Origin: Escherichia coli
Lineage (GTDB): Bacteria > Pseudomonadota > Gammaproteobacteria > Enterobacterales > Enterobacteriaceae
Assembly (NCBI RefSeq): GCF_046105845.1
Contig: NZ_CP151004.1
Strand: one strand, 5' to 3'
DNA: 64,000 nt
Shown here: positions 41,127 to 64,000 of the stretch, one piece after another
Layout: every line of letters starts with the position of its first letter
How positions within the stretch are numbered: position 1 is the stretch's first letter
Translations under genes and position numbers: made by a program
The notes under the pieces: generated by a model
What the model saw: the letters and a program-made list of their open reading frames with translations, nothing else
The model's database searches: none
What the model was told of the DNA's origin: nothing

Positions 41127-47190
<6,064 letters not shown>

Positions 47191-47194
47191 TACT

Positions 47195-47220
47195 TACCCG
47201 CAGAAATCATTCTGCGGGTA
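47195..47220 (+). terminator. putative terminator hairpin after astE
   Basis: CCCGCAGAA-atcat-TCTGCGGG. Confidence 0.5.
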
Positions 47221-47519
47221 TTAAGTTACTTTCTTATAAATTAATACAGATTAATCCTGGTTATTTGCTTTATTTATCACCAGTCATCCGGTATAGTTCT
47301 TCATAATCTCTGCAAAATCATCGTGTTGTAATATTCCCTCATCACTCTCCATCAAATTTTCTTTTTTTCTCCATAATTGGCGCAAAAGTGTTTTTTACAC
47401 TTTCATTGTTTTACCGTTGCTCTGATTAATTGACGCTAAAGTCAGTAAAGTTAATCTCGTCAACACGGCACGCTTCTTAAGAAAGCCGTAATAAATAACT
47501 GAAAGGAAGGATATAGAAT

Positions 47520-48005
47520 ATGCGTAAATTAACTGCACTGTTTGTTGCCTCTACCCTGGCTCTTGGCGCGGCTAACCTGGCCCATGCCGCAGACACCACT
47601 ACCGCAGCACCGGCTGACGCGAAGCCGATGATGCACCACAAAGGCAAGTTCGGTCCGCATCAGGACATGATGTTCAAAGACCTGAACCTGACCGACGCGC
47701 AGAAACAGCAGATCCGCGAAATCATGAAAGGCCAGCGTGACCAGATGAAACGTCCGCCGCTGGAAGAACGCCGCGCAATGCATGACATCATTGCCAGCGA
47801 TACCTTCGATAAAGCAAAAGCTGAAGCGCAGATCGCAAAAATGGAAGAACAGCGCAAAGCTAACATGCTGGCGCACATGGAAACCCAGAACAAGATTTAC
47901 AACATCCTGACGCCGGAACAGAAAAAGCAATTTAATGCTAATTTTGAGAAGCGTCTGACAGAACGTCCAGCGGCAAAAGGTAAAATGCCTGCAACTGCTG
48001 AATAA
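47520..48005 (+). CDS. spy: Spy, periplasmic ATP-independent chaperone
   Basis: 161 aa with signal peptide; matches Spy. Confidence 0.95.
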   Translation: MRKLTALFVASTLALGAANLAHAADTTTAAPADAKPMMHHKGKFGPHQDMMFKDLNLTDAQKQQIREIMKGQRDQMKRPPLEERRAMHDIIASDTFDKAKAEAQIAKMEEQRKANMLAHMETQNKIYNILTPEQKKQFNANFEKRLTERPAAKGKMPATAE

Positions 48006-48027
48006 TCTTTCAGCCAAAAAACGTAAG

Positions 48028-48090
48028 ACCGCCGGTCTTGTCCACTACCTTGCAGTAATGCGGTGGACAGGATCGGCGGTTTTCTTTTTT
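48028..48090 (+). terminator. rho-independent terminator after spy
   Basis: 18-bp stem ACCGCCGGTCTTGTCCAC / GTGGACAGGATCGGCGGT (two mismatches, G-U wobble in RNA) followed by TTTTCTTTTTT. Confidence 0.8.
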
Positions 48091-48129
48091 GTTCTCAAAC
48101 AGATGCAAAAAAAGCCTGATCGCCACTAA

Positions 48130-49630
<1,501 letters not shown>

Positions 49631-49643
49631 TGTTGACTCCGAA

Positions 49644-49663
49644 TGCTGGTTATCTATCCAGTG
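49644..49663 (-). promoter_or_regulatory. LexA box upstream of cho (CACTGGATAGATAACCAGCA on minus strand)
   Basis: CTGG-N8-CCAG palindrome read directly; matches the box I recall being reported for ydjQ/cho. Confidence 0.6.
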
Positions 49664-49709
49664 TAACAGGCGGGGAGCGATTAAAAAAGAGGCGGGTTGA
49701 TGACAAAGG

Positions 49710-49820
49710 TTACACCGTCTGACGTGCTACGCCTGTCAGGCCTATTCGACTCATGCAATATATTGAATTTGCATAGTTTTGTGGGGCGAATAAGGCGTTC
49801 ACGCCGCATCCGGCGTGAAC
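49710..49820. repeat. REP/BIME palindromic units between cho and nadE
   Basis: GGCGTTCACGCCGCATCCGGCG and CGCCTGTCAGGCCTA motifs resembling REP consensus. Confidence 0.6.
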
Positions 49821-49859
49821 AAAGTACTCTTTTTCGCACAAACCAATATGTGCAAATTA

Positions 49860-50687
49860 TTACTTTTTCCAGAAATCATCGAAAACGGTAATTGGCGGAC
49901 GGCGTTTATGTTCGGTTTTCAGATACCAGTTCTCTATTGTTCTGGCGACCTGTTCAGGTAGGTTTTTCCCTTCCAGATAGTCGTCGATATTGTCATAGGT
50001 CACGCCGAGTGCCACTTCATCTGGCAGAGAAGGGCGATCATCTTCCAGATCGGCCGTTGGGGCTTTCTTATAAAGGTGTTCCGGGCAACCTAATGCCGCC
50101 AGTAACTGTTTACCCTGGCGTTTGTTGAGACGATACAGCGGATTAATATCCGTACCGCCGTCACCATATTTAGTGAAGAATCCGGTAATGGCTTCTGCTG
50201 CATGATCGGTGCCCACCACGACACCGCTGGTCATACCCGCAATGCTATATTGTGCTTTCATCCGCTCACGCGCTTTTTCATTGCCACGGACAAAATCGCT
50301 CAGTTCAATGCCTGCTTCCCGCAATGCCTGCTCGCTGGCCAATACCGCGCCCTTGATATTAACGGTTAATACGCGATCCGGTTGAATAAAGGCAATGGCA
50401 TCCTGGCAATCTTGTTCGTCGGCCTGAACACCATAGGGCAGGCGTACGGCAATAAATTGCAGTGATTCGTTGCCGGTCTCCTGGCGCAGCTCATTAATCG
50501 CCATCTGGCACAGCTTACCGGCAAGCGTGGAGTCCTGACCGCCGCTGATCCCTAGCACCAGTGATTTAATGAACGGATAAGTTTGCAGGTAGCTTTTCAG
50601 AAAATCGACACTACGACGAATTTCCTCTTCAGCATTAATTTGCGGTTTTGCGCCCAGCGCCTTTATTATTTGTTGTTGCAATGTCAT
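49860..50687 (-). CDS. nadE: NH3-dependent NAD+ synthetase
   Basis: 275 aa from [23 protein letters not shown]; SGGQDS PP-loop. Confidence 0.96.
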
Positions 50688-50888
50688 TGAACCCCTCCAG
50701 ACAGAAAAGACAAAACTTCCTTAAAGCTAACCCGTTGCTACTGAAACGACAAGCGACAGCAGGTTGAATGGTGGTTAAAACGTCATACAGGAATCCTCTG
50801 AAAGCGGAGCCGTTTCGTTCACGGGCTTGAAAAAGCGCCCAATGTATTCCAGGCTTATCTAACACGCTGATAAACAAGAGGACGGAAT

Positions 50889-51227
50889 ATGAACAAGAAT
50901 ATGGCAGGAATTCTGAGTGCAGCGGCGGTATTAACCATGCTGGCGGGTTGTACGGCTTATGATCGTACCAAAGACCAGTTTGTACAGCCTGTGGTGAAAG
51001 ACGTCAAAAAAGGCATGAGCCGGGCGCAGGTTGCACAAATTGCGGGTAAACCTTCGTCTGAAGTGAGCATGATCCATGCTCGTGGTACTTGCCAGACCTA
51101 CATCCTGGGTCAACGTGATGGTAAAGCAGAAACCTACTTTGTCGCGTTAGATGATACCGGACATGTCATCAACTCCGGTTATCAGACCTGTGCTGAATAC
51201 GACACTGATCCACAGGCTGCGAAGTAA
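50889..51227 (+). CDS. osmE: OsmE, osmotically inducible lipoprotein
   Basis: 112 aa with lipobox LAGC. Confidence 0.92.
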
Positions 51228-51259
51228 TCACTTCGCCTGAAAGCTTGAGTTACAACGGA

Positions 51260-51288
51260 AACCGGCCATTGCGCCGGTTTTTTTTGGC
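51260..51288 (+). terminator. rho-independent terminator after osmE
   Basis: AACCGGC-cattgc-GCCGGTT followed by TTTTTTT. Confidence 0.8.
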
Positions 51289-51525
51289 CTGAGTTCTTAA
51301 TTATCTTCGCGAATTATTTGCCCGAAATGTGAAGAGGGTCATAACCGCAGGTCAAGGAGAGACAATTTATAAGGTCAAAGAAATACTATTGCTCAGGTCT
51401 ATACCGTATACTCCTTTCAGCCACAAAAAAAGTCATGTTGGTTTCGCAAGTTACCCAGAGCATGGAAGCAGGTTAAGGCTTGCGGAGTGTCTGGCTGACG
51501 GATAATCGTCGATGAGGGCAGTTTT

Positions 51526-51846
51526 ATGGAAAAGAAACACATTTATCTGTTTTGTTCTGCGGGCATGTCTACCTCTTTACTGGTATCAAAAATGCGCGCA
51601 CAGGCAGAAAAATATGAAGTTCCGGTCATTATTGAAGCATTTCCGGAAACACTGGCTGGTGAAAAAGGTCAGAATGCCGATGTCGTGTTATTAGGGCCGC
51701 AGATTGCTTATATGTTGCCCGAAATCCAGCGTTTGTTACCCAACAAACCGGTTGAAGTAATTGACTCGCTGCTTTATGGCAAAGTCGATGGTTTAGGCGT
51801 GCTTAAGGCTGCGGTTGCAGCGATTAAAAAAGCCGCAGCAAATTAA
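51526..51846 (+). CDS. chbB: PTS chitobiose EIIB
   Basis: 106 aa; synteny chbBCARFG. Confidence 0.93.
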
Positions 51847-51930
51847 TTTATTTTAAATTTTCCCGTCAAAGAGTTATTTCATAAATCAATACCGCAATAT
51901 TTAAATTGCGGTTTTTAAGGGTATTTTTCT

Positions 51931-53289
51931 ATGAGTAATGTTATTGCATCGCTTGAAAAGGTACTCATCCCTTTTGCAGTTAAAATAGGAAAGCAGCCAC
52001 ACGTTAATGCAATCAAAAATGGCTTTATTCGCTTAATGCCGTTAACCCTTGCGGGGGCCATGTTTGTATTAATTAACAACGTTTTTCTAAGCTTTGGGGA
52101 GGGGTCGTTTTTTTATTCCTTAGGTATTCGCCTGGATGCCTCAACCATTGAAACACTTAATGGTCTGAAAGGTATTGGCGGCAACGTATATAACGGAACA
52201 TTAGGGATAATGTCTTTAATGGCACCGTTCTTTATTGGCATGGCACTGGCAGAAGAGCGTAAAGTCGATGCGCTGGCGGCTGGGTTGTTATCCGTTGCAG
52301 CATTTATGACCGTCACCCCTTATAGTGTCGGTGAGGCCTATGCGGTTGGCGCAAACTGGTTAGGTGGGGCGAATATCATCTCCGGGATTATTATTGGCCT
52401 GGTGGTGGCAGAAATGTTTACCTTTATTGTCCGCCGCAATTGGGTCATTAAATTGCCCGACAGCGTACCTGCTTCAGTATCGCGTTCCTTCTCGGCTTTA
52501 ATTCCCGGCTTTATTATTCTTTCCGTGATGGGGATTATTGCCTGGGCGTTGAATACCTGGGGCACCAACTTCCATCAGATCATTATGGATACCATCTCAA
52601 CCCCACTGGCATCGTTGGGTAGCGTGGTGGGCTGGGCCTATGTGATCTTTGTTCCACTGCTCTGGTTCTTCGGTATTCATGGCGCGCTGGCGCTGACCGC
52701 ACTGGACAACGGCATTATGACGCCGTGGGCGCTGGAAAACATCGCGACCTATCAGCAATATGGTTCCGTCGAAGCGGCGCTGGCAGCCGGTAAGACCTTC
52801 CATATCTGGGCCAAGCCGATGCTGGACTCCTTTATTTTCCTCGGTGGCAGTGGTGCGACTTTGGGTCTGATCCTGGCTATCTTTATCGCTTCTCGCCGTG
52901 CTGATTATCGTCAGGTGGCAAAACTGGCGCTGCCGTCCGGCATCTTCCAGATTAACGAACCGATTCTGTTTGGTCTGCCAATTATCATGAACCCGGTGAT
53001 GTTTATCCCGTTTGTACTGGTACAACCGATTCTGGCGGCAATCACCCTGGCAGCGTACTACATGGGCATTATTCCTCCGGTGACCAATATTGCACCGTGG
53101 ACCATGCCAACCGGTCTGGGAGCCTTCTTTAACACCAACGGTAGCGTCGCCGCATTGCTGGTCGCACTCTTCAACCTTGGTATCGCAACGTTAATTTATC
53201 TGCCCTTTGTTGTGGTCGCTAACAAAGCACAAAATGCGATTGATAAAGAAGAGAGCGAAGAAGATATCGCTAACGCCCTGAAATTTTAA
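51931..53289 (+). CDS. chbC: PTS chitobiose EIIC
   Basis: 452 aa multi-TM. Confidence 0.93.
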
Positions 53290-53339
53290 TCGATGCCGGT
53301 ACGGGTAATCGTGCCGGTAAGAATAGAGAGGAACGATGT

Positions 53340-53690
53340 ATGATGGATCTCGATAATATTCCCGATACGCAAACGGAAGCTGAAGAGCTGGAAGAAGTGG
53401 TGATGGGGCTTATCATCAACTCCGGACAAGCGCGCAGCCTGGCGTATGCGGCACTGAAACAGGCGAAGCAGGGCGATTTTGCCGCAGCAAAAGCCATGAT
53501 GGATCAGTCACGGATGGCATTGAATGAAGCGCATCTGGTACAGACGAAACTGATTGAAGGCGATGCGGGCGAAGGTAAGATGAAAGTGAGTCTGGTGCTG
53601 GTCCACGCTCAGGATCATTTAATGACGTCCATGCTTGCGCGTGAACTGATTACCGAATTAATTGAGCTTCATGAAAAACTGAAGGCATAA
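53340..53690 (+). CDS. chbA: PTS chitobiose EIIA
   Basis: 116 aa. Confidence 0.93.
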
Positions 53691-53697
53691 GGAGTCG

Positions 53698-54540
53698 ATG
53701 ATGCAGCCAGTGATTAACGCGCCGGAAATTGCCACTGCCCGAGAACAGCAGTTGTTTAATGGCAAAAACTTCCATGTGTTTATCTATAACAAAACTGAGA
53801 GTATCAGCGGACTGCATCAGCACGACTATTATGAATTTACTCTGGTATTAACCGGGCGTTATTTCCAGGAGATTAACGGTAAGCGCGTGTTACTGGAACG
53901 GGGCGATTTTGTTTTTATTCCGTTAGGTTCGCACCATCAAAGTTTTTATGAGTTTGGTGCCACGCGTATATTGAACGTTGGGATCAGTAAACGCTTTTTT
54001 GAGCAGCATTACCTGCCGTTGTTGCCTTATTGCTTTGTCGCTTCGCAGGTATACCGGACCAATAACGCTTTTCTCACCTATGTGGAAACAGTGATTTCTT
54101 CATTGAATTTCCGCGAAACAGGGCTGGAAGAGTTTGTTGAGATGGTTACTTTTTATGTCATTAACCGTTTACGTCATTACCGCGAAGAACAGGTGATTGA
54201 TGATGTACCGCAGTGGCTGAAAAGTACGGTAGAAAAGATGCATGATAAAGAGCAGTTTAGTGAATCGGCGCTGGAGAATATGGTGACGTTGTCAGCCAAA
54301 TCACAGGAATATTTGACGCGAGCGACTCAACGATATTATGGCAAAACACCAATGCAGATTATTAATGAGATCCGTATTAATTTTGCCAAAAAACAACTGG
54401 AAATGACCAACTATTCCGTGACGGATATTGCGTTTGAGGCCGGTTATAGTAGCCCGAGCTTGTTTATTAAAACGTTTAAGAAATTAACGTCCTTTACGCC
54501 TAAGAGCTATCGTAAGAAATTGACTGAATTTAATCAGTAA
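53698..54540 (+). CDS. chbR: ChbR, AraC-family regulator of the chb operon
   Basis: 280 aa; C-terminal AraC HTH. Confidence 0.92.
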
Positions 54541-54642
54541 GTCGTTATACCTGACAATTCACATATCTGTCCTGTTGCTGGATTATGTATGTCCGGGGGC
54601 AGATATGCCAGATATCAGTATTCTGTACTGAAGGGAGAAATT

Positions 54643-55995
54643 ATGAGCCAGAAATTAAAAGTCGTCACTATTGGTGGCGGGAGCAGCTATACCCCGGAGT
54701 TACTGGAAGGATTTATTAAGCGTTATCACGAATTGCCGGTCAGCGAATTATGGCTGGTGGATGTCGAAGGTGGTAAAGCTAAACTGGATATTATTTTTGA
54801 TCTCTGCCAACGGATGATTGATAACGCTGGCGTCCCGATGAAGCTTTATAAAACGCTGGATCGCCGCGAAGCATTGAAAGATGCTGATTTCGTTACTACC
54901 CAACTGCGCGTAGGCCAATTACCGGCGCGCGAACTGGATGAACGTATTCCATTAAGTCATGGTTATCTTGGTCAGGAAACCAACGGCGCGGGCGGTCTGT
55001 TTAAAGGTCTGCGTACCATTCCGGTGATTTTTGACATCGTAAAAGATGTCGAAGAACTTTGTCCGAATGCATGGGTGATTAACTTCACTAACCCGGCGGG
55101 AATGGTCACTGAAGCCGTTTATCGTCATACCGGATTTAAACGCTTTATCGGCGTGTGTAATATTCCGATCGGCATGAAGATGTTTATTCGCGATGTTCTG
55201 ATGCTGAAAGACAGCGATGATTTATCTATCGATCTGTTCGGCCTCAACCATATGGTGTTCATTAAGGATGTGCTGGTAAATGGCAAATCACGCTTTGCCG
55301 AATTGCTTGATGGTGTGGCATCCGGGCAGTTAAAAGCATCTGGCGTTAAAAATATTTTCGATCTGCCATTTAGCGAAGGCTTAATTCGTTCTCTGAATCT
55401 GTTGCCGTGTTCTTATTTGCTTTATTACTTCAAGCAAAAAGAGATGCTGGCTATTGAAATGGGCGAATACTACAAAGGCGGCGCACGAGCGCAGGTAGTA
55501 CAGAAAGTCGAGAAACAACTTTTTGAGCTGTATAAAAACCCGGAGTTGAAAGTTAAGCCGAAAGAACTGGAACAGCGCGGTGGGGCTTATTACTCTGATG
55601 CAGCATGCGAAGTGATCAACGCTATCTACAACGACAAGCAAGCTGAACATTACGTTAATATCCCGCATCATGGGCATATTGATAATATTCCGGCAGACTG
55701 GGCGGTAGAAATGACCTGTACGCTGGGGCGCGATGGCGCGACGCCACATCCGCGCATTACGCATTTCGATGATAAAGTGATGGGGCTGATTCACACCATT
55801 AAAGGCTTCGAGATTGCTGCCAGCAACGCTGCACTTAGCGGAGAATTTAACGATGTGTTACTGGCGCTAAACCTTAGTCCGTTGGTGCATTCCGATCGCG
55901 ATGCTGAGCTGCTGGCACGCGAGATGATTCTGGCGCACGAGAAATGGCTGCCAAATTTTGCCGACTGCATCGCAGAGCTTAAAAAAGCACATTAA
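54643..55995 (+). CDS. chbF: ChbF, 6-phospho-beta-glucosidase (GH4)
   Basis: 450 aa from MSQKLKVVTIGGGSSYTPEL. Confidence 0.93.
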   Translation: MSQKLKVVTIGGGSSYTPELLEGFIKRYHELPVSELWLVDVEGGKAKLDIIFDLCQRMIDNAGVPMKLYKTLDRREALKDADFVTTQLRVGQLPARELDERIPLSHGYLGQETNGAGGLFKGLRTIPVIFDIVKDVEELCPNAWVINFTNPAGMVTEAVYRHTGFKRFIGVCNIPIGMKMFIRDVLMLKDSDDLSIDLFGLNHMVFIKDVLVNGKSRFAELLDGVASGQLKASGVKNIFDLPFSEGLIRSLNLLPCSYLLYYFKQKEMLAIEMGEYYKGGARAQVVQKVEKQLFELYKNPELKVKPKELEQRGGAYYSDAACEVINAIYNDKQAEHYVNIPHHGHIDNIPADWAVEMTCTLGRDGATPHPRITHFDDKVMGLIHTIKGFEIAASNAALSGEFNDVLLALNLSPLVHSDRDAELLAREMILAHEKWLPNFADCIAELKKAH

Positions 55996-56766
<771 letters not shown>

Positions 56767-56776
56767 GTAAGGTGGT

Positions 56777-56806
56777 AAGGTCACTCCCCAGGGGGCGTGA
56801 CCTTAT
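56777..56806. terminator. bidirectional terminator between chbG and katE
   Basis: AAGGTCAC-tcccca/ggggg-GTGACCTT hairpin. Confidence 0.6.
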
Positions 56807-56812
56807 CCATAT

Positions 56813-59074
56813 TTACGCCGGAATTTTGTCAATCTTAGGAATGCGTGACCACACGCGGTGTGCTGCCATCAGCGTTAACAGTTCATCCATAAAACTACCA
56901 TCGGCGCTGTCAGCTTCCACAATCCCTTCTTCACCCTGGTCAGCGACCTTGATTGTTGCTTTAAACTTGCGCGCGTCTCCTGCCAGCGCAATCGGTTTAA
57001 GGTGTTTGTAGGCTTCCATCAGGTAGTAGCTGGCATCGCCGTTGTCAGCGATATCCGCGATATTGCCGCAAGGGACAATAACCGCATCGACCGTCAGCGA
57101 AGGCGCTCCGGCAAAGGTAGCAGCTATAGGCAGCACCGTACCGTCATCCGCAGTCACTTCACCCATTCGGGAGTAGAGCAGTTTGGCATGAACGCCTTTG
57201 GCCTTCAGCGCCTTGAGAATGGTCAGAAGGTCTGCCGATCTCACTTCATCATTAAGCAAAATCGCTACCACGCGACCTTTTACATCACCGTTAGGAATGG
57301 CGTACAGACTTAAGGATGGATCCTTTTTCAGACCGTTGACGTCCGGAGGCGGGGAGATATTCAGCTGGTCGTCAGTCAGTTCGATACCGAGATTTTTCGC
57401 CACCGCCTGGGCCAGAGTGAGATCAATATGCGCCAGCTGGTCAACAACGCGCTCACGAATATACGGCCGAACTACTTTGCTTAACTCAAAACTGAAACCA
57501 TCGACAATATGGCGCTGCTCGAATGGCGTCTGACTTAGCCAGAACAGACGCGGATGGGAATAATATTCGCCAAACGATGGACTGCGCTCGCGAACTTTAT
57601 TGCCTTCCACGCGTTCCTGGTATGATTCAAAACCGCCACGTTTCGGCCCCGGCGGTGTTTCGCGCGGCCAGTTATCGTTGATCGAGTTCGGTTCGTAATT
57701 CGCCGGGTTAGTGTCGATCCCCATACGATGCATGCCGTCACGCTGGAAATTATGGTAAGGGCAGGTCGGGCGGTTAATCGGAATCTCATGGAAATTTGGT
57801 CCGCCAAGACGACTGATTTGTGTATCGGTATAAGAGAACAAACGCCCCTGCAACAGCGGATCGTTGGTGAAATCCAGACCGGGGACAATATGCCCAGGAT
57901 GGAAAGCCGCCTGTTCGTTTTCGGCAAAGAAGTTATCCGGGTTGCGATTGAGCACCATTTTGCCAACACGCTGAACGGGTACCAGTTCTTCCGGGATGAG
58001 TTTGGTTGGATCGAGAAGATCGAAGTCAAACTTGAATTCATCTTCTTCAGGAATCAACTGGAAGCCCAGTTCGTATTCCGGAAAATCGCCTGCTTCGATG
58101 GCTTCCCACAACTCGCGGCGGTGGAAGTCCGGGTCACGTCCGGTTAGTTTTTGTGCTTCATCCCAAACGAGTGAGGCTTTACCTGCCACTGGTTTCCAGT
58201 GGAAGCGTACGAACGTTGCCTTCCCTTCGGCATTAATCAGGCGGAAGGTGTGAATACCAAAGCCTTCCATGGTGCGGTAACTGCGTGGGATCCCGCGATC
58301 CGACATCGCCCACATCACGTTGTGCAGAGTTTCAGGTTGCAGAGAAACATAATCCCAGAAAGTATCGTGGGCGCTTTGCCCTTGTGGGATTGCCCAGTGC
58401 GGTTCTGGTTTTACCGCATGAACAAAATCGGGGAATTTATGCGCATCCTGGATAAAGAAGATTGGCGTGTTATTGCCAACGAGGTCAAAAATACCCTCTT
58501 CAGTATAGAACTTGGTGGCAAAGCCACGGATATCACGCACGGTATCGGCAGAGCCAGCACCACCCTGAACGGTAGAGAAACGTACAAATACTGGGGTGAT
58601 TTTGTTCGGATCTGAGAGGAAATCCGCTTTGGTGATATCGCTTAAGCTTTTATATGGCTGGAAATAACCGTGAGCGGCTGATCCGCGTGCATGAACAATA
58701 CGTTCCGGGATGCGCTCATGGTCAAAGTGAGTGATTTTCTCGCGCAGAATAAAATCTTCCAGCAGCGTTGGACCACGGCTACCGGCACGCAGTGAGTTTT
58801 GATCATCGGCGATGCGCACGCCCTGATTAGTGGTCAGCGCAAAATTTTCACTGCCTTTGCGTACGTCTTCCAGAGAATTAAGTTTTTCGTTACGCGTATC
58901 AGGGGCTTTCAGGCTCCCAGGGGCGGTAGGTTGTGCACCTGGCGGTGTTGGTTCAGCCGCTGGACGATGAGAGCCGTCTTCAGGTGCCAGTGAGTCCATC
59001 CCCGGTTTCGCTTCGCTGGAATCGTGTAGTGGTGACTGGTGCTGATGTGGGTTCTTTTCGTTATGTTGCGACAT
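56813..59074 (-). CDS. katE: Catalase HPII
   Basis: 753 aa from [20 protein letters not shown]; large-subunit catalase. Confidence 0.96.
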
Positions 59075-59277
59075 TGAACTCGTCTCCTTAACTTATTACT
59101 GAAAGGGCCGCTGTTTTGGTCAAAAAACCCTCTAAATATAGACCATCAGCCAGATCCCGCTTCGGAGACTATTCTGGAAACGGTGTTATGAAATACACGC
59201 AAAGCGGGACGTACAGGGGCTAAATCGGCTAAACTACAGTTTTTCTGATTTTTAATATGCGTTTAGTGAAGCCAGTA

Positions 59278-59520
59278 ATGAAGAAACCGCTCCGTCAGCA
59301 AAACCGCCAGATTATTAGCTATGTCCCACGCACGGAACCCGCGCCGCCAGAACATGCGATAAAGATGGATTCGTTTCGTGATGTCTGGATGCTGCGTGGC
59401 AAATATGTTGCGTTTGTACTGATGGGAGAGTCATTTCTGCGCTCACCGGCGTTTACTGTGCCTGAATCCGCCCAGCGTTGGGCAAATCAGATCCGCCAGG
59501 AAGGGGAAGTGACTGAGTAA
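59278..59520 (+). CDS. cedA: CedA, cell division modulator
   Basis: 80 aa from MKKPLRQQNRQ (track ORF starts 59257). Confidence 0.85.
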   Translation: MKKPLRQQNRQIISYVPRTEPAPPEHAIKMDSFRDVWMLRGKYVAFVLMGESFLRSPAFTVPESAQRWANQIRQEGEVTE

Positions 59521-59808
59521 AGATTACGTACCTCCCGGTTTTGCCGGGAGTTACATGACCTGAAATTCTGTATTTCATTGCTACATTCATTCAAACCACC
59601 TGTAACAAAAAGCTGCCTTTGACGATCTATTGCTATAAATAAGTGAACTTTTTTCTTTAATTGTTTATTTATTTTAAAATGGTTAAATTTTGCTAATCAT
59701 GATGAGCTATTTTTGATAGTTCATCCTGTGGCGTCGCTCTTAAACTTATATTGTAAATGACTTAGATTTAAATGAGATAATAATTTTGTTAACAATATGA
59801 GGCGGGAG

Positions 59809-60612
59809 ATGCTTTCTACAAACTTAATACAGAGTAATTATGGTGATTTAAATATTAAAAGCCTGGCTTTCGACTCTTTTAAAGAAAGGCTGCAGTCTAC
59901 TATGACAGCACTCACTTTCTTTATATCAACGGGTCAATGTGCCTGCGATGAAATAGCAGAATCAAACTTCAATTATATGATTGCCTATATGTCTAACATT
60001 AACTATGATGCCTCAAAGCCAGGAGCGCCAGCACTTAGTTTTGATACATATCTGCAGGACAATGTTAAATATAGAGTGATAATTAATAATCTTTATGGTA
60101 GTGAAATTAGGATAAGAGGTATTAATGAGAATTTTGTTGGGATGGATTTTACCTGTGAATTCCGACCAGAAAAAATGACCAATTTGATCAATATAAAAAA
60201 CAGGTTGGTTATTCACTATTTAAGAACGATATACTATGAACAAAATTATATACATCCTGTTGGGAGCATTTTTGCTGCGATTCAAAAAAATGAGAGTCTC
60301 CTAAAGTTTCCTTCGGTAATATCAATGCTTAATGTCAATCTTCTTTTTAATCCACTGAATCTTCCGGGAATGGGAAGTGGTGTGCTTGAAGAGATTATGA
60401 GTATTTCAGATAGTTCACTTAGAAAACGTCTTGGGTATGAGGTTTTAAGCTTTTCGCTACAGGCACATTCATTGAGTCAGGAATGTATCGATAAGTTAGC
60501 CATTTTTTTCGCTGACGATCTGTTTAAATATGAGTCAGTATGCATCGCCGCGATGGAACATTTAAAAAGTAAGGCAACGGCTCCTATACAAAACGGACCG
60601 TTGCCAGCATAA
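59809..60612 (+). CDS. ydjO: YdjO, uncharacterised protein in a very AT-rich region
   Basis: 267 aa from MLSTNLIQ (track ORF starts 59797); synteny. Confidence 0.75.
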   Translation: MLSTNLIQSNYGDLNIKSLAFDSFKERLQSTMTALTFFISTGQCACDEIAESNFNYMIAYMSNINYDASKPGAPALSFDTYLQDNVKYRVIINNLYGSEIRIRGINENFVGMDFTCEFRPEKMTNLINIKNRLVIHYLRTIYYEQNYIHPVGSIFAAIQKNESLLKFPSVISMLNVNLLFNPLNLPGMGSGVLEEIMSISDSSLRKRLGYEVLSFSLQAHSLSQECIDKLAIFFADDLFKYESVCIAAMEHLKSKATAPIQNGPLPA

Positions 60613-60615
60613 GAA

Positions 60616-62007
60616 TTAACGGTGTGCCAGTTCGGCGTCGTCTTCGCTATCCAGAATGGCTTTATCGGTTTGCTTCAGCCACTGGCTGGTCAGCGTGCCA
60701 GCGGTCATCGAGCCACTAACGTTTAGCGCCGTACGCCCCATGTCGATAAGCGGTTCAACGGAGATTAACAGCGCCACCAGGGTTACTGGCAGGCCCATCG
60801 CAGGCAGCACAATCAGTGCGGCGAAAGTTGCACCACCACCGACACCGGCAACGCCTGCGGAACTAACGGTAACAATACCGACCAGCGTCGCAATCCACAT
60901 CGGGTCCATCGGGTTAATGCCAACCGTAGGCGCAACCATCACCGCCAGCATCGCCGGATACAAACCGGCACAGCCGTTCTGACCAATGGTTGCACCGAAA
61001 GAGGCGGCGAAACTGGCGATGGATTCAGGAACACCCAGACGACGCGTTTGTGCTTCCACATTCAGTGGGATAGACGCAGCACTGGAACGGCTGGTAAAGG
61101 CAAACGTCAGTACTGGCCATACCTTACGGAAGTACTTCAGCGGGCTCACGCCATTAATACCCAGCAGAAGGCCATGCACTGCAAACATAATCAGAAGACC
61201 GAGGTAGGACGCGACAACGAAACTTCCCAGTTTGATGATGTCTTGCAGGTTAGAACCTGCAACCACTTTGGTCATCAGCGCCAGAACGCCGTAAGGGGTC
61301 AACTGCATGACCAGGCGAACCAGCTTCATTACCCAGCTTTGCAGGGTATCGATAGCGGTTAAGACGCGTTCACCTTTCGGGGCATCATCCTTCAGCAGTT
61401 TCAGCGCAGCTACACCGAGGAATGCGGCAAAAATTACCACGCTGATAATTGACGTCGGATTGGCTCCGGTCAGATCGGCAAACGGGTTTTTCGGGATAAA
61501 GGACAAGACCAGCTGCGGAACGCTCAGGTCAGAGACTTTACCAACATAGTTACTTTCAATGGCGTTCAGACGTGCAGTTTCTGCACCACCCTGAACCAGA
61601 CCTTCAGCCGTCAAACCAAACAGGTTGGTGACCAGCACACCGACCAGCGCCGCAATCAGCGTGGTAAACAAAAGCGTACCGATGGTCAGAAAACTGATTT
61701 TGCCTAACTGAGATGCGTTATGCAGACGGGCAACCGCGCTCAGAATAGAGGCGAAGACTAACGGCATAACGATCATTTGCAGCAGTTGAACATAGCCGTT
61801 ACCAACAATGTTAAACCACTGTACAGAATCTTTAAGTACCTGGCTGTCAGAACCATAAATGGTATGCAGGGCAAGGCCAAAAACCACACCCATCACCAGA
61901 CCCACCAGCACTTTTTTCGCCAGACTCCACTGTTTATGGCGGGTCTGAGCCAGCGCAAACAGCAGTACAACGAACACCACGATGTTCGCAATTAATGGAA
62001 AGTTCAT
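60616..62007 (-). CDS. tcyP: TcyP (YdjN), L-cystine:cation symporter of the DAACS family
   Basis: 463 aa multi-TM. Confidence 0.9.
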
Positions 62008-62139
62008 CCCCGTTCTCCTGATCTTATTATTTCTATCACTGCGTAGCAGTCATAGTGTTGGCGCAAGATTAACAGAACTGTGAGCTGGCTCTTATATTCA
62101 AATGGAATTGCTTATTCCAGAAAGGTGATTTTTGCCTTT

Positions 62140-62730
62140 TTAGTATTCAACCTGATGCTTAATAAGCCGATGAAACTGGATCTGCAAAGTATTGATCATT
62201 TGCGATGACCAACGAACAGCGCTGTTTTCGGGTAATGAATGGGGCATCCATACCGACCAGACAAATAATGCCATGCAGATAAAACGTTCCAGTTGGTTGC
62301 CCTTTTGGGGAACCAGGATAGGCAAGCGGAAACGCCAGCGGCATGGCCAGAGCAGGGGAACACCGGCGGGTGTCAGCATATCGGCAAGTATGTGGCTCAA
62401 ATAACCCAGCACCATTCCTTGTAGCGCATCAGCCGGAATGAACCAGCTTTCAGGAACCTTAAGGTAAAAGGTTGCCAGCAGCGCAAATACCGCCAGCAGA
62501 CTGTGGGTAAAACCACGATGCCCAAAAGCGCGGGCGATCGGTTTTGATATCCACTTTAATCGCTGCCCAAGAAACGACTTTGGGTGATCGATGTCCGGTA
62601 ACAAACACGTCAGGATTGCGGAAGGGACAATATGCCACCAGTCACCCTGTGCCAGCACGGGCGTCAGCTCGGCATTTTTGGCAAATACCGCACAAGCAAT
62701 AGAAAAGAGAAGGTGACCTTCCGCCGTCAT
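62140..62730 (-). CDS. ydjM: YdjM, LexA-regulated inner membrane protein
   Basis: 196 aa from MTAEGHLLFSIA. Confidence 0.88.
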   Translation of the reverse strand: MTAEGHLLFSIACAVFAKNAELTPVLAQGDWWHIVPSAILTCLLPDIDHPKSFLGQRLKWISKPIARAFGHRGFTHSLLAVFALLATFYLKVPESWFIPADALQGMVLGYLSHILADMLTPAGVPLLWPCRWRFRLPILVPQKGNQLERFICMALFVWSVWMPHSLPENSAVRWSSQMINTLQIQFHRLIKHQVEY

Positions 62731-62744
62731 GATAAAACTCACTA

Positions 62745-62764
62745 AACTGTCGATACGTACAGTA
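62745..62764. promoter_or_regulatory. LexA box upstream of ydjM (CTGT-N8-ACAG)
   Basis: AACTGTCGATACGTACAGTA read directly; a second degenerate box may follow at 62759-62782. Confidence 0.75.
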
Positions 62765-62892
62765 TAGGATTTTTATACAGTGCACGGAAGTGGTGACGGT
62801 GTAACTCTTTCTCTTAAATTGACGATTAATCCGCCAGTTGAATGCAAATTCAGATAAAGAACCAGGGGCAGCGTGATAACTGCCCCTGGTTA

Positions 62893-63561
62893 TTAACCGA
62901 GAAGGTCTTTTGCGGTGAGTTCTGTCAGCGATGAGAGTTTGACGTTTGCTAATACAAAACGTGGATCATTTTGCGCTTCTGGCGCAGGAACGACGATGGA
63001 ACGCATGCGGGCTGCTTTAGAGGCGATCATGCCATTTACCGAATCTTCCAGCGCTACGCAGGTCAGTGGGTCAACGCCCAGTTTTGCTGCGCAGTCGAGA
63101 TATACTTGCGGATGCGGCTTGCTGTAAGGCAATTTTTCAGCCGAGGCGAGGGCATCGAAACTGTCGCGTAAGTCAAACATGGTCAACACTTTTTCCAGCA
63201 TATGTAGTGGTGACGCGGAGGCCAGTCCCACCAATAAACCTTGTTCTTTGCATAACGCAACGGCTTCACGCACGCCTGGCAATAATGGGCGTGTCTCTTC
63301 AACCAGTGAAATGGCACGAGCAATAACCCGTTCTACTACTTCCTGACGGCTTGGCCCATTCCAGGGTTGCCGGGCGTACCAAAGATCGACCACCATATCG
63401 ATGCGTAAACCTAAGGTGTCCGGCAGCTCGTTACGACGGGAGATATCCACCCCCAGGCTTGCCATCACATCCAGTTCAGCTCGATCCCATAAAGGTTCTG
63501 AGTCGATAAGTAATCCATCCATATCAAAAATTGCAGCAAGAATCTGACGCGGGGTTGACAT
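62893..63561 (-). CDS. yniC: YniC/HxpB, HAD-family sugar phosphatase
   Basis: 222 aa; DxDG HAD motif (FDMDGLL). Confidence 0.9.
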   Translation of the reverse strand: MSTPRQILAAIFDMDGLLIDSEPLWDRAELDVMASLGVDISRRNELPDTLGLRIDMVVDLWYARQPWNGPSRQEVVERVIARAISLVEETRPLLPGVREAVALCKEQGLLVGLASASPLHMLEKVLTMFDLRDSFDALASAEKLPYSKPHPQVYLDCAAKLGVDPLTCVALEDSVNGMIASKAARMRSIVVPAPEAQNDPRFVLANVKLSSLTELTAKDLLG

Positions 63562-63707
63562 TACAACCTCTCCTTTAGAGCATTATGTGTAAGGTATTAA
63601 GCCGTGCTTATGATTAAGCGCCTATCATATCGCCTTTAAAGAATGGGCGAAAACAGATATCTACAGGTAAACTAAGTGAAACGACGCGTCTTAATCAAGG
63701 AGAACTC

Positions 63708-64000
63708 ATGACGTATCAACAAGCTGGACGCATTGCTGTTTTGAAAAGGATTTTGGGTTGGGTGATTTTTATACCTGCATTGATCTCTACATTGATTTCT
63801 TTGCTTAAATTTATGAATACCCGGCAGGAAAACCAGGAAGGCATTAATGCGGTCATGCTCGACTTTACTCATGTCATGATCGATATGATGCAGGCGAATA
63901 CGCCTTTTTTGAATCTGTTCTGGTATAACTCCCCGACGCCCAATTTTAATGGTGGCGTGAACGTTATGTTCTGGGTGATTTTCATCCTGATTTTTGTCGG
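63708..64000 (+). CDS. yniB: YniB, inner membrane protein (partial, runs off window end)
   Basis: ATG at 63708 with AAGGAG RBS; no stop before the window end. Confidence 0.75.
   Translation, partial: MTYQQAGRIAVLKRILGWVIFIPALISTLISLLKFMNTRQENQEGINAVMLDFTHVMIDMMQANTPFLNLFWYNSPTPNFNGGVNVMFWVIFILIFV

Follow-up and report, generated by a model that had tools for sequence, protein, structure and literature searches.

The region at 62745-62782, immediately upstream of ydjM, is very probably a tandem SOS operator at which LexA occupies both of two adjoining boxes and keeps RNA polymerase off the gene. The operator is not new: it was described in 2000 and has been repeatedly confirmed since. Tandem LexA boxes at this gene (b1728 in Escherichia coli K-12) were reportedly given by Fernandez de Henestrosa et al. 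in 2000 and by Courcelle et al. in 2001. Here the sequence of the operator, its strength as compared with chance expectation and its degree of conservation were computed for a 64,000-nucleotide stretch of E. coli DNA, hereafter the window, while LexA binding and LexA-dependent induction are taken from published papers. From these we infer that LexA occludes the promoter, where the -10 element lies and that binding at the second box is cooperative.

The coding sequence of ydjM runs along the minus strand (62140-62730), so that upstream corresponds to higher coordinates, and encodes 196 amino acids from an ATG at 62730. Its product matches the Pfam family YdjM (PF04307, E = 7e-36) and the NCBIfam equivalog 'metal-dependent hydrolase' (NF008651, 375 bits), and can be described as a YdjM-family inner-membrane protein and putative metal-dependent hydrolase. 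A comparison with solved structures found no sequence relative of YdjM. A GTG at 62742 was considered as a start codon and rejected in favour of the ATG, both because the spacers between the proximal LexA box and the ATG, 13-23 nt long in different species, vary by indels of lengths not divisible by three and because the K-12 annotation of b1728 places the start at the ATG. The upstream neighbour hxpB (yniC; 62893-63561, minus strand), a HAD phosphatase according to the Pfam HAD families, is outside the SOS unit. The other neighbours are tcyP (ydjN; 60616-62007, minus strand) and, in the same region, ydjO (59797-60612, plus strand). The locus is the same in K-12, where ydjM has an identical operator and the gene order hxpB-ydjM-tcyP is preserved.

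A hairpin terminator of hxpB at 62860-62891 on the minus strand, with a 13-bp stem containing eight GC pairs, sets ydjM apart from the transcription of hxpB in this lineage. The terminator stretch is not conserved outside Escherichia. More broadly, the stop codon of hxpB and the conserved promoter block of ydjM are held apart in Escherichia by some 70 extra nucleotides (62816-62892), the terminator included. In the remaining genera the same stretch aligns with the 3' end of the hxpB coding sequence, so that ydjM may also receive read-through from hxpB there. An Rfam scan of 59500-64000 produced two sub-threshold chance matches and nothing else.

An earlier note on this DNA, made from the sequence alone, had placed a perfect CTGT-N8-ACAG box at 62747-62762, immediately upstream of ydjM, and a second CTGT-containing, AT-rich element beyond it. 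The palindrome is indeed present at that position (CTGTCGATACGTACAG on the plus strand), is the sole instance in the window, and does lie immediately upstream of the gene. When examined at the full length of a LexA site, 62745-62782 proves to consist of exactly two 20-nt LexA-type boxes that have 2 nt (TA) in common and whose centres are 18 nt apart. Box 1, the strong operator, occupies 62764..62745 on the minus strand (TACTGTACGTATCGACAGTT) and its 3' end is 14 nt from the ydjM ATG. Box 2, a weak operator and effectively a half-site, occupies 62782..62763 on the same strand (CACTGTATAAAAATCCTATA) and ends 32 nt before the ATG. Jointly the boxes span about 38 nt, finishing 14 nt 5' of the start codon. 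Measured against the LexA consensus TACTG(TA)5CAGTA (PMC6590174), box 1 has 15 of 20 matches with both cores intact and box 2 has 14 of 20. The second element of the earlier note is thus correct as regards its CTGT and its AT-rich centre, but only one of its halves is LexA-like, since it has CTA in place of CAG.

Searches with bare patterns proved too weak to decide whether these boxes exceed chance. Chance alone would give 0.53 copies of CTGT-N8-ACAG per 64 kb, and the pattern was present in 42 of 100 dinucleotide shuffles of the window, so that its occurrence is not significant in itself. Separately, the looser pattern CTG-N10-CAG occurs 24 times in the window compared with 12.3 expected from dinucleotide shuffles, a count reached by only one shuffle in 100. 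This excess likely reflects codon usage, since both CTG and CAG are used very often as codons, a feature that is lost in dinucleotide shuffling, and is not evidence for additional LexA sites.

A weight matrix was therefore used instead. The matrix is symmetric and 20 nt long, and was derived from 22 E. coli LexA sites known from published compilations, of which only the two recN sites were checked against sequence; the ydjM and cho sites were omitted. Across the whole 64 kb, its three highest-scoring matches are the cho box, ydjM box 1 and ydjM box 2, none of which is in the training set. Box 1, ranked second, scores 17.0 bits, which places it among the training sites (13.0-26.6 bits) and is expected 0.02 times per simulated 64 kb. 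Box 2, ranked third, scores 11.9 bits, below the weakest training site (13.0 bits); with 0.6 such matches expected per 64 kb it is not significant alone. The probability that a site scoring as box 2 does should abut box 1 by chance is, though, roughly 4e-4 (0.6 x 40/64000). With these scores and their 2-nt overlap, the two boxes fit a strong-plus-weak pair overlapping at the ends.

The best match to the matrix in the window, at 18.8 bits, is found at 49644-49663 on the minus strand (CACTGGATAGATAACCAGCA), 13 nt upstream of the GTG start of an open reading frame at 48743-49630 (minus strand) that encodes the excinuclease Cho (NCBIfam NF007833, 576 bits). It is the known cho/ydjQ SOS box. It was missed by the search for CTGT-N8-ACAG because its cores are CTGG and CCAG. 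The ydjM operator can serve as a positive control: the three boxes known in these 64 kb are exactly those that a simple LexA matrix recovers.

Within E. coli the operator is strongly conserved. The 105 nt 5' of the ydjM ATG, both boxes included, are identical to those of K-12 MG1655, and the five substitutions seen when the comparison is extended to 201 nt all lie beyond that distance, in and around the hxpB terminator. The 85 nt at 62731-62815 were found in 5,422 of 5,426 complete E. coli genomes and are 100% identical in 3,586, most of the non-identical genomes differing at one position. As to the wider surroundings, none of the 5,426 genomes exceeds 99.0% identity over the 20 kb at 44000-64000, although gene order is the same; the lineage of the window, apparently a somewhat divergent one of E. 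coli/Shigella type, appears not to be closely represented among them.

Conservation extends well beyond the species. A scan of species-representative genomes yielded 80 orthologous ydjM loci from Enterobacteriaceae, with 85-99% protein identity and drawn from Escherichia, Citrobacter, Salmonella, Enterobacter, Kosakonia, Raoultella and other genera. Alignment of their upstream regions shows the motif ACTGTATAAAAAyCCTATACTGkATGaATyGACAGTT to be nearly invariant. Over the 80 species the mean majority fraction is 0.94 for box 1 (55% of columns invariant) and 0.95 for box 2 (45%), compared with 0.57, and no invariant columns (0%), for a control set of 53 fourfold-degenerate sites in ydjM. Synonymous sites of the gene are saturated and the boxes are conserved beyond neutral expectation. 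Box 1 is never lost: its ACAG is present in all 81 sequences, and its other core is CTGT in 64 and CTGG in 17, with no third variant. Both CTGT and CTGG cores are known from recognised LexA sites.

The position of box 2 is also conserved. In 79 of the 81 sequences, the second-best matrix match in the 170-nt upstream region has an offset of exactly 18 nt from box 1, on its upstream side, and 78 have CTGTAT or CTGTAC as the left half of box 2 at this fixed offset. The information in the box is unevenly divided between its halves, which score 11.9 bits (left) and 0.4 bits (right) in the window, with medians of 13.9 and -2.1 bits across species, and the inner half reads CCTATA in all 81 sequences. 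On this evidence box 2 would effectively behave as a half-site, with a LexA-like outer half and an inner half devoid of LexA information. The invariance of CCTATA in the absence of such information is better explained by a -10-like TATACT together with the flank of box 1, and CCTATA probably belongs to a -10 element of that sequence.

Three natural variants, differing some 30-50 nt upstream of the ydjM start, bear on the contribution of box 2. Its CTGT is destroyed in Citrobacter amalonaticus S646 and in Intestinirhabdus alba, both of which nevertheless retain box 1 and the invariant CCTATACTG, while in Leclercia adecarboxylata a 1-nt insertion puts box 2 at a 19-nt offset. With its left half lost in two species and shifted in one, box 2 is dispensable in some lineages. 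The three variants could serve to show whether box 2 aids repression.

A scan of 62500-63000 for consensus sigma-70 promoters found none, and a relaxed scan of the 81 sequences returned three weak candidates on the minus strand with no clear winner. The best score, 7.7 out of 12, belongs to a -10 candidate TATAAA inside box 2; a second, TATACT, preceded by C and putatively placed at 62761..62766 at the junction of the boxes, scores 7.3/12; and a third, GTTACA-17-TACTGT, takes its -10 from the outer end of box 2 and scores 6.6/12. All three -10 candidates fall within the two 20-mers, beneath the boxes, and promoter occlusion is therefore the likely mode of repression. TATACT is the only one of them to have A2 and T6 in every one of the 81 sequences, and the CCTATACTG that spans it is the same in all of them. 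A promoter proposed further upstream from RNA-polymerase SELEX (CTGAAA-17-ATTAAT) was set aside as the main ydjM promoter because the stretch containing it is not conserved outside Escherichia.

Upstream of box 2, a 33-nt block at 62783..62815 on the minus strand (GAAAGAGTTACACCGTCACCACTTCCGTG) is conserved like the boxes themselves, with a mean majority fraction of 0.93 and 48% invariant columns. It includes an imperfect inverted repeat, GTTAC-N3-GTCAC, and may hold the -35 region and spacer of the promoter or a site for another regulator. TATACT elements with C at -13 are of a type favoured by sigma-S and used also by sigma-70. We tentatively raise the possibility, which we consider rather doubtful as a whole, that CCTATACT is the real ydjM -10, that box 2 is a half-site in the spacer, that box 1 covers the -10 and the transcription start, and that 62783-62815 constitutes a second regulatory input. 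If this were true, the block would bring ydjM a regulatory input additional to LexA.

Conceivably, box 1 alone is the operator, the second element being core promoter (spacer and -10) whose outer half has no more than a resemblance to a LexA half-site and which owes its conservation to a requirement of RNA polymerase. The poor right half with its invariant CCTATA, which TATACT and the flank of box 1 would account for, fits such an arrangement, as do the lack of significance of box 2 on its own, the retention of box 1 in the two species without the CTGT of box 2, and the location of the best-scoring -10 candidate, TATAAA, inside box 2. We nonetheless judge it unlikely, given the left half held at an 18-nt offset in 78 of 81 sequences, an equal strong-plus-weak pair with the same offset at recN, and two lines of published evidence. 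PMC4951493 cites tandem sites for LexA at ydjM of E. coli as experimentally reported (Fernandez de Henestrosa 2000), and the heterology index of box 2 in Salmonella, 12.85, is below that of accepted sites in the same list (PMC8072944).

The tandem arrangement favoured here has close parallels. In Salmonella enterica, ydjM (STM14_1605) has two boxes whose distances from the ATG, 14 and 32 nt, equal those in the window, and the index of the first is 9.12 (PMC8072944). The centre of Salmonella box 1 is ATGAATTG, compared with ACGTATCG here, and the Salmonella version scores higher with our matrix. In K-12, recN has three LexA boxes, at 48, 26 and 8 nt from the ATG (positions 428-487 of the locus sequence used, L082). 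The strong 20-mer (450-469) and the weak one (468-487) share TA at an 18-nt offset, just as in ydjM, and the weak box has a degenerate half adjoining the strong one and a consensus-like outer half, as in ydjM box 2. The box distances reported for Salmonella recN, 8 and 26 nt, agree with those in K-12 (PMC8072944). The two operators differ in that the weak box of recN is downstream, beside the start codon, while that of ydjM is upstream, and in that recN has a third box 22 nt further upstream whereas ydjM has two only. A strong and a weak box sharing TA at an 18-nt offset thus appears to be a recurring layout, and the layout is consistent with the strong site assisting binding at the weak one.

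As in the ydjM pair, close tandem LexA sites tighten repression in the double operators of colicin genes and of the lexA gene. The tandem LexA sites of lexA are offset by about 21 nt and those of colicin genes by about 15 nt, compared with 18 nt in ydjM. At the colicin genes, strong and weak LexA sites overlap at their ends and bind cooperatively (PMC4951493).

That the palindrome is instead a chance match or the site of another regulator, with induction of ydjM by damage being indirect, seems highly improbable: the bare pattern is indeed expected about once in every two windows of this size and many LexA-dependent genes have no box and are regulated indirectly (PMC11228462), but the score of the full 20-mer is itself rare, the half-sites are invariant over 80 species while synonymous sites are saturated, LexA binding is published (PMC4951493), and ydjM is classed with the boxed SOS genes (PMC11228462).

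Published expression data agree with control by LexA. The gene is counted as a classical boxed SOS gene and has a heterology index of 9.0; it rises 2.5-fold on treatment with AZT and shows an 8.6-fold dependence on cleavable LexA, as judged with lexA3 (PMC11228462). It rises 4.5-fold with ciprofloxacin (PMC10967283) and also in an SOS time course (PMC11002266), and its Salmonella counterpart rises 2.11-fold with nalidixic acid (PMC8072944). The sequence of box 2 determined here is printed for b1728 in PMC4576408. The assignment of ydjM to the SOS regulon in the earlier note is supported by this LexA-dependent induction, and SOS induction, the absence of which it had named as telling against its reading, is seen with AZT and ciprofloxacin and, in Salmonella, with nalidixic acid. 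Its description of the product as a membrane protein of obscure role also still applies, YdjM being termed a poorly characterised inner membrane protein in PMC11575346.

Taken with the sequence, these data suggest how the tandem operator would work. In the SOS response in general, dimers of LexA bind the boxes, and RecA filaments formed on single-stranded DNA trigger self-cleavage of LexA; SOS genes with weaker boxes are readily released and modestly induced. At ydjM in an undamaged cell, one LexA dimer would sit on box 1, the full CTGT-N8-ACAG site, and a second would be bound 18 nt upstream on box 2, probably helped by the dimer on box 1. Some 38 nt would be covered in this way, including every plausible -10 and the likely transcription start, and RNA polymerase would be excluded. 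After DNA damage, RecA filaments would bring about LexA self-cleavage, the boxes would empty and ydjM would be transcribed at a moderate level.

LexA control of YdjM proteins is not confined to the Enterobacteriaceae. In Staphylococcus aureus, SAOUHSC_02424, a gene for a YdjM-motif protein, is LexA-regulated like ydjM of E. coli. Unlike ydjM, it has a single box, with the LexA motif CGAAAATATGTTCG, and forms a three-gene operon together with UDPGP and HlyIII genes. The YdjM family is thus LexA-controlled both in E. coli and in the distantly related S. aureus, and the recurrence of this control suggests that YdjM proteins have a real role, at the level of the membrane, in the response to DNA damage.
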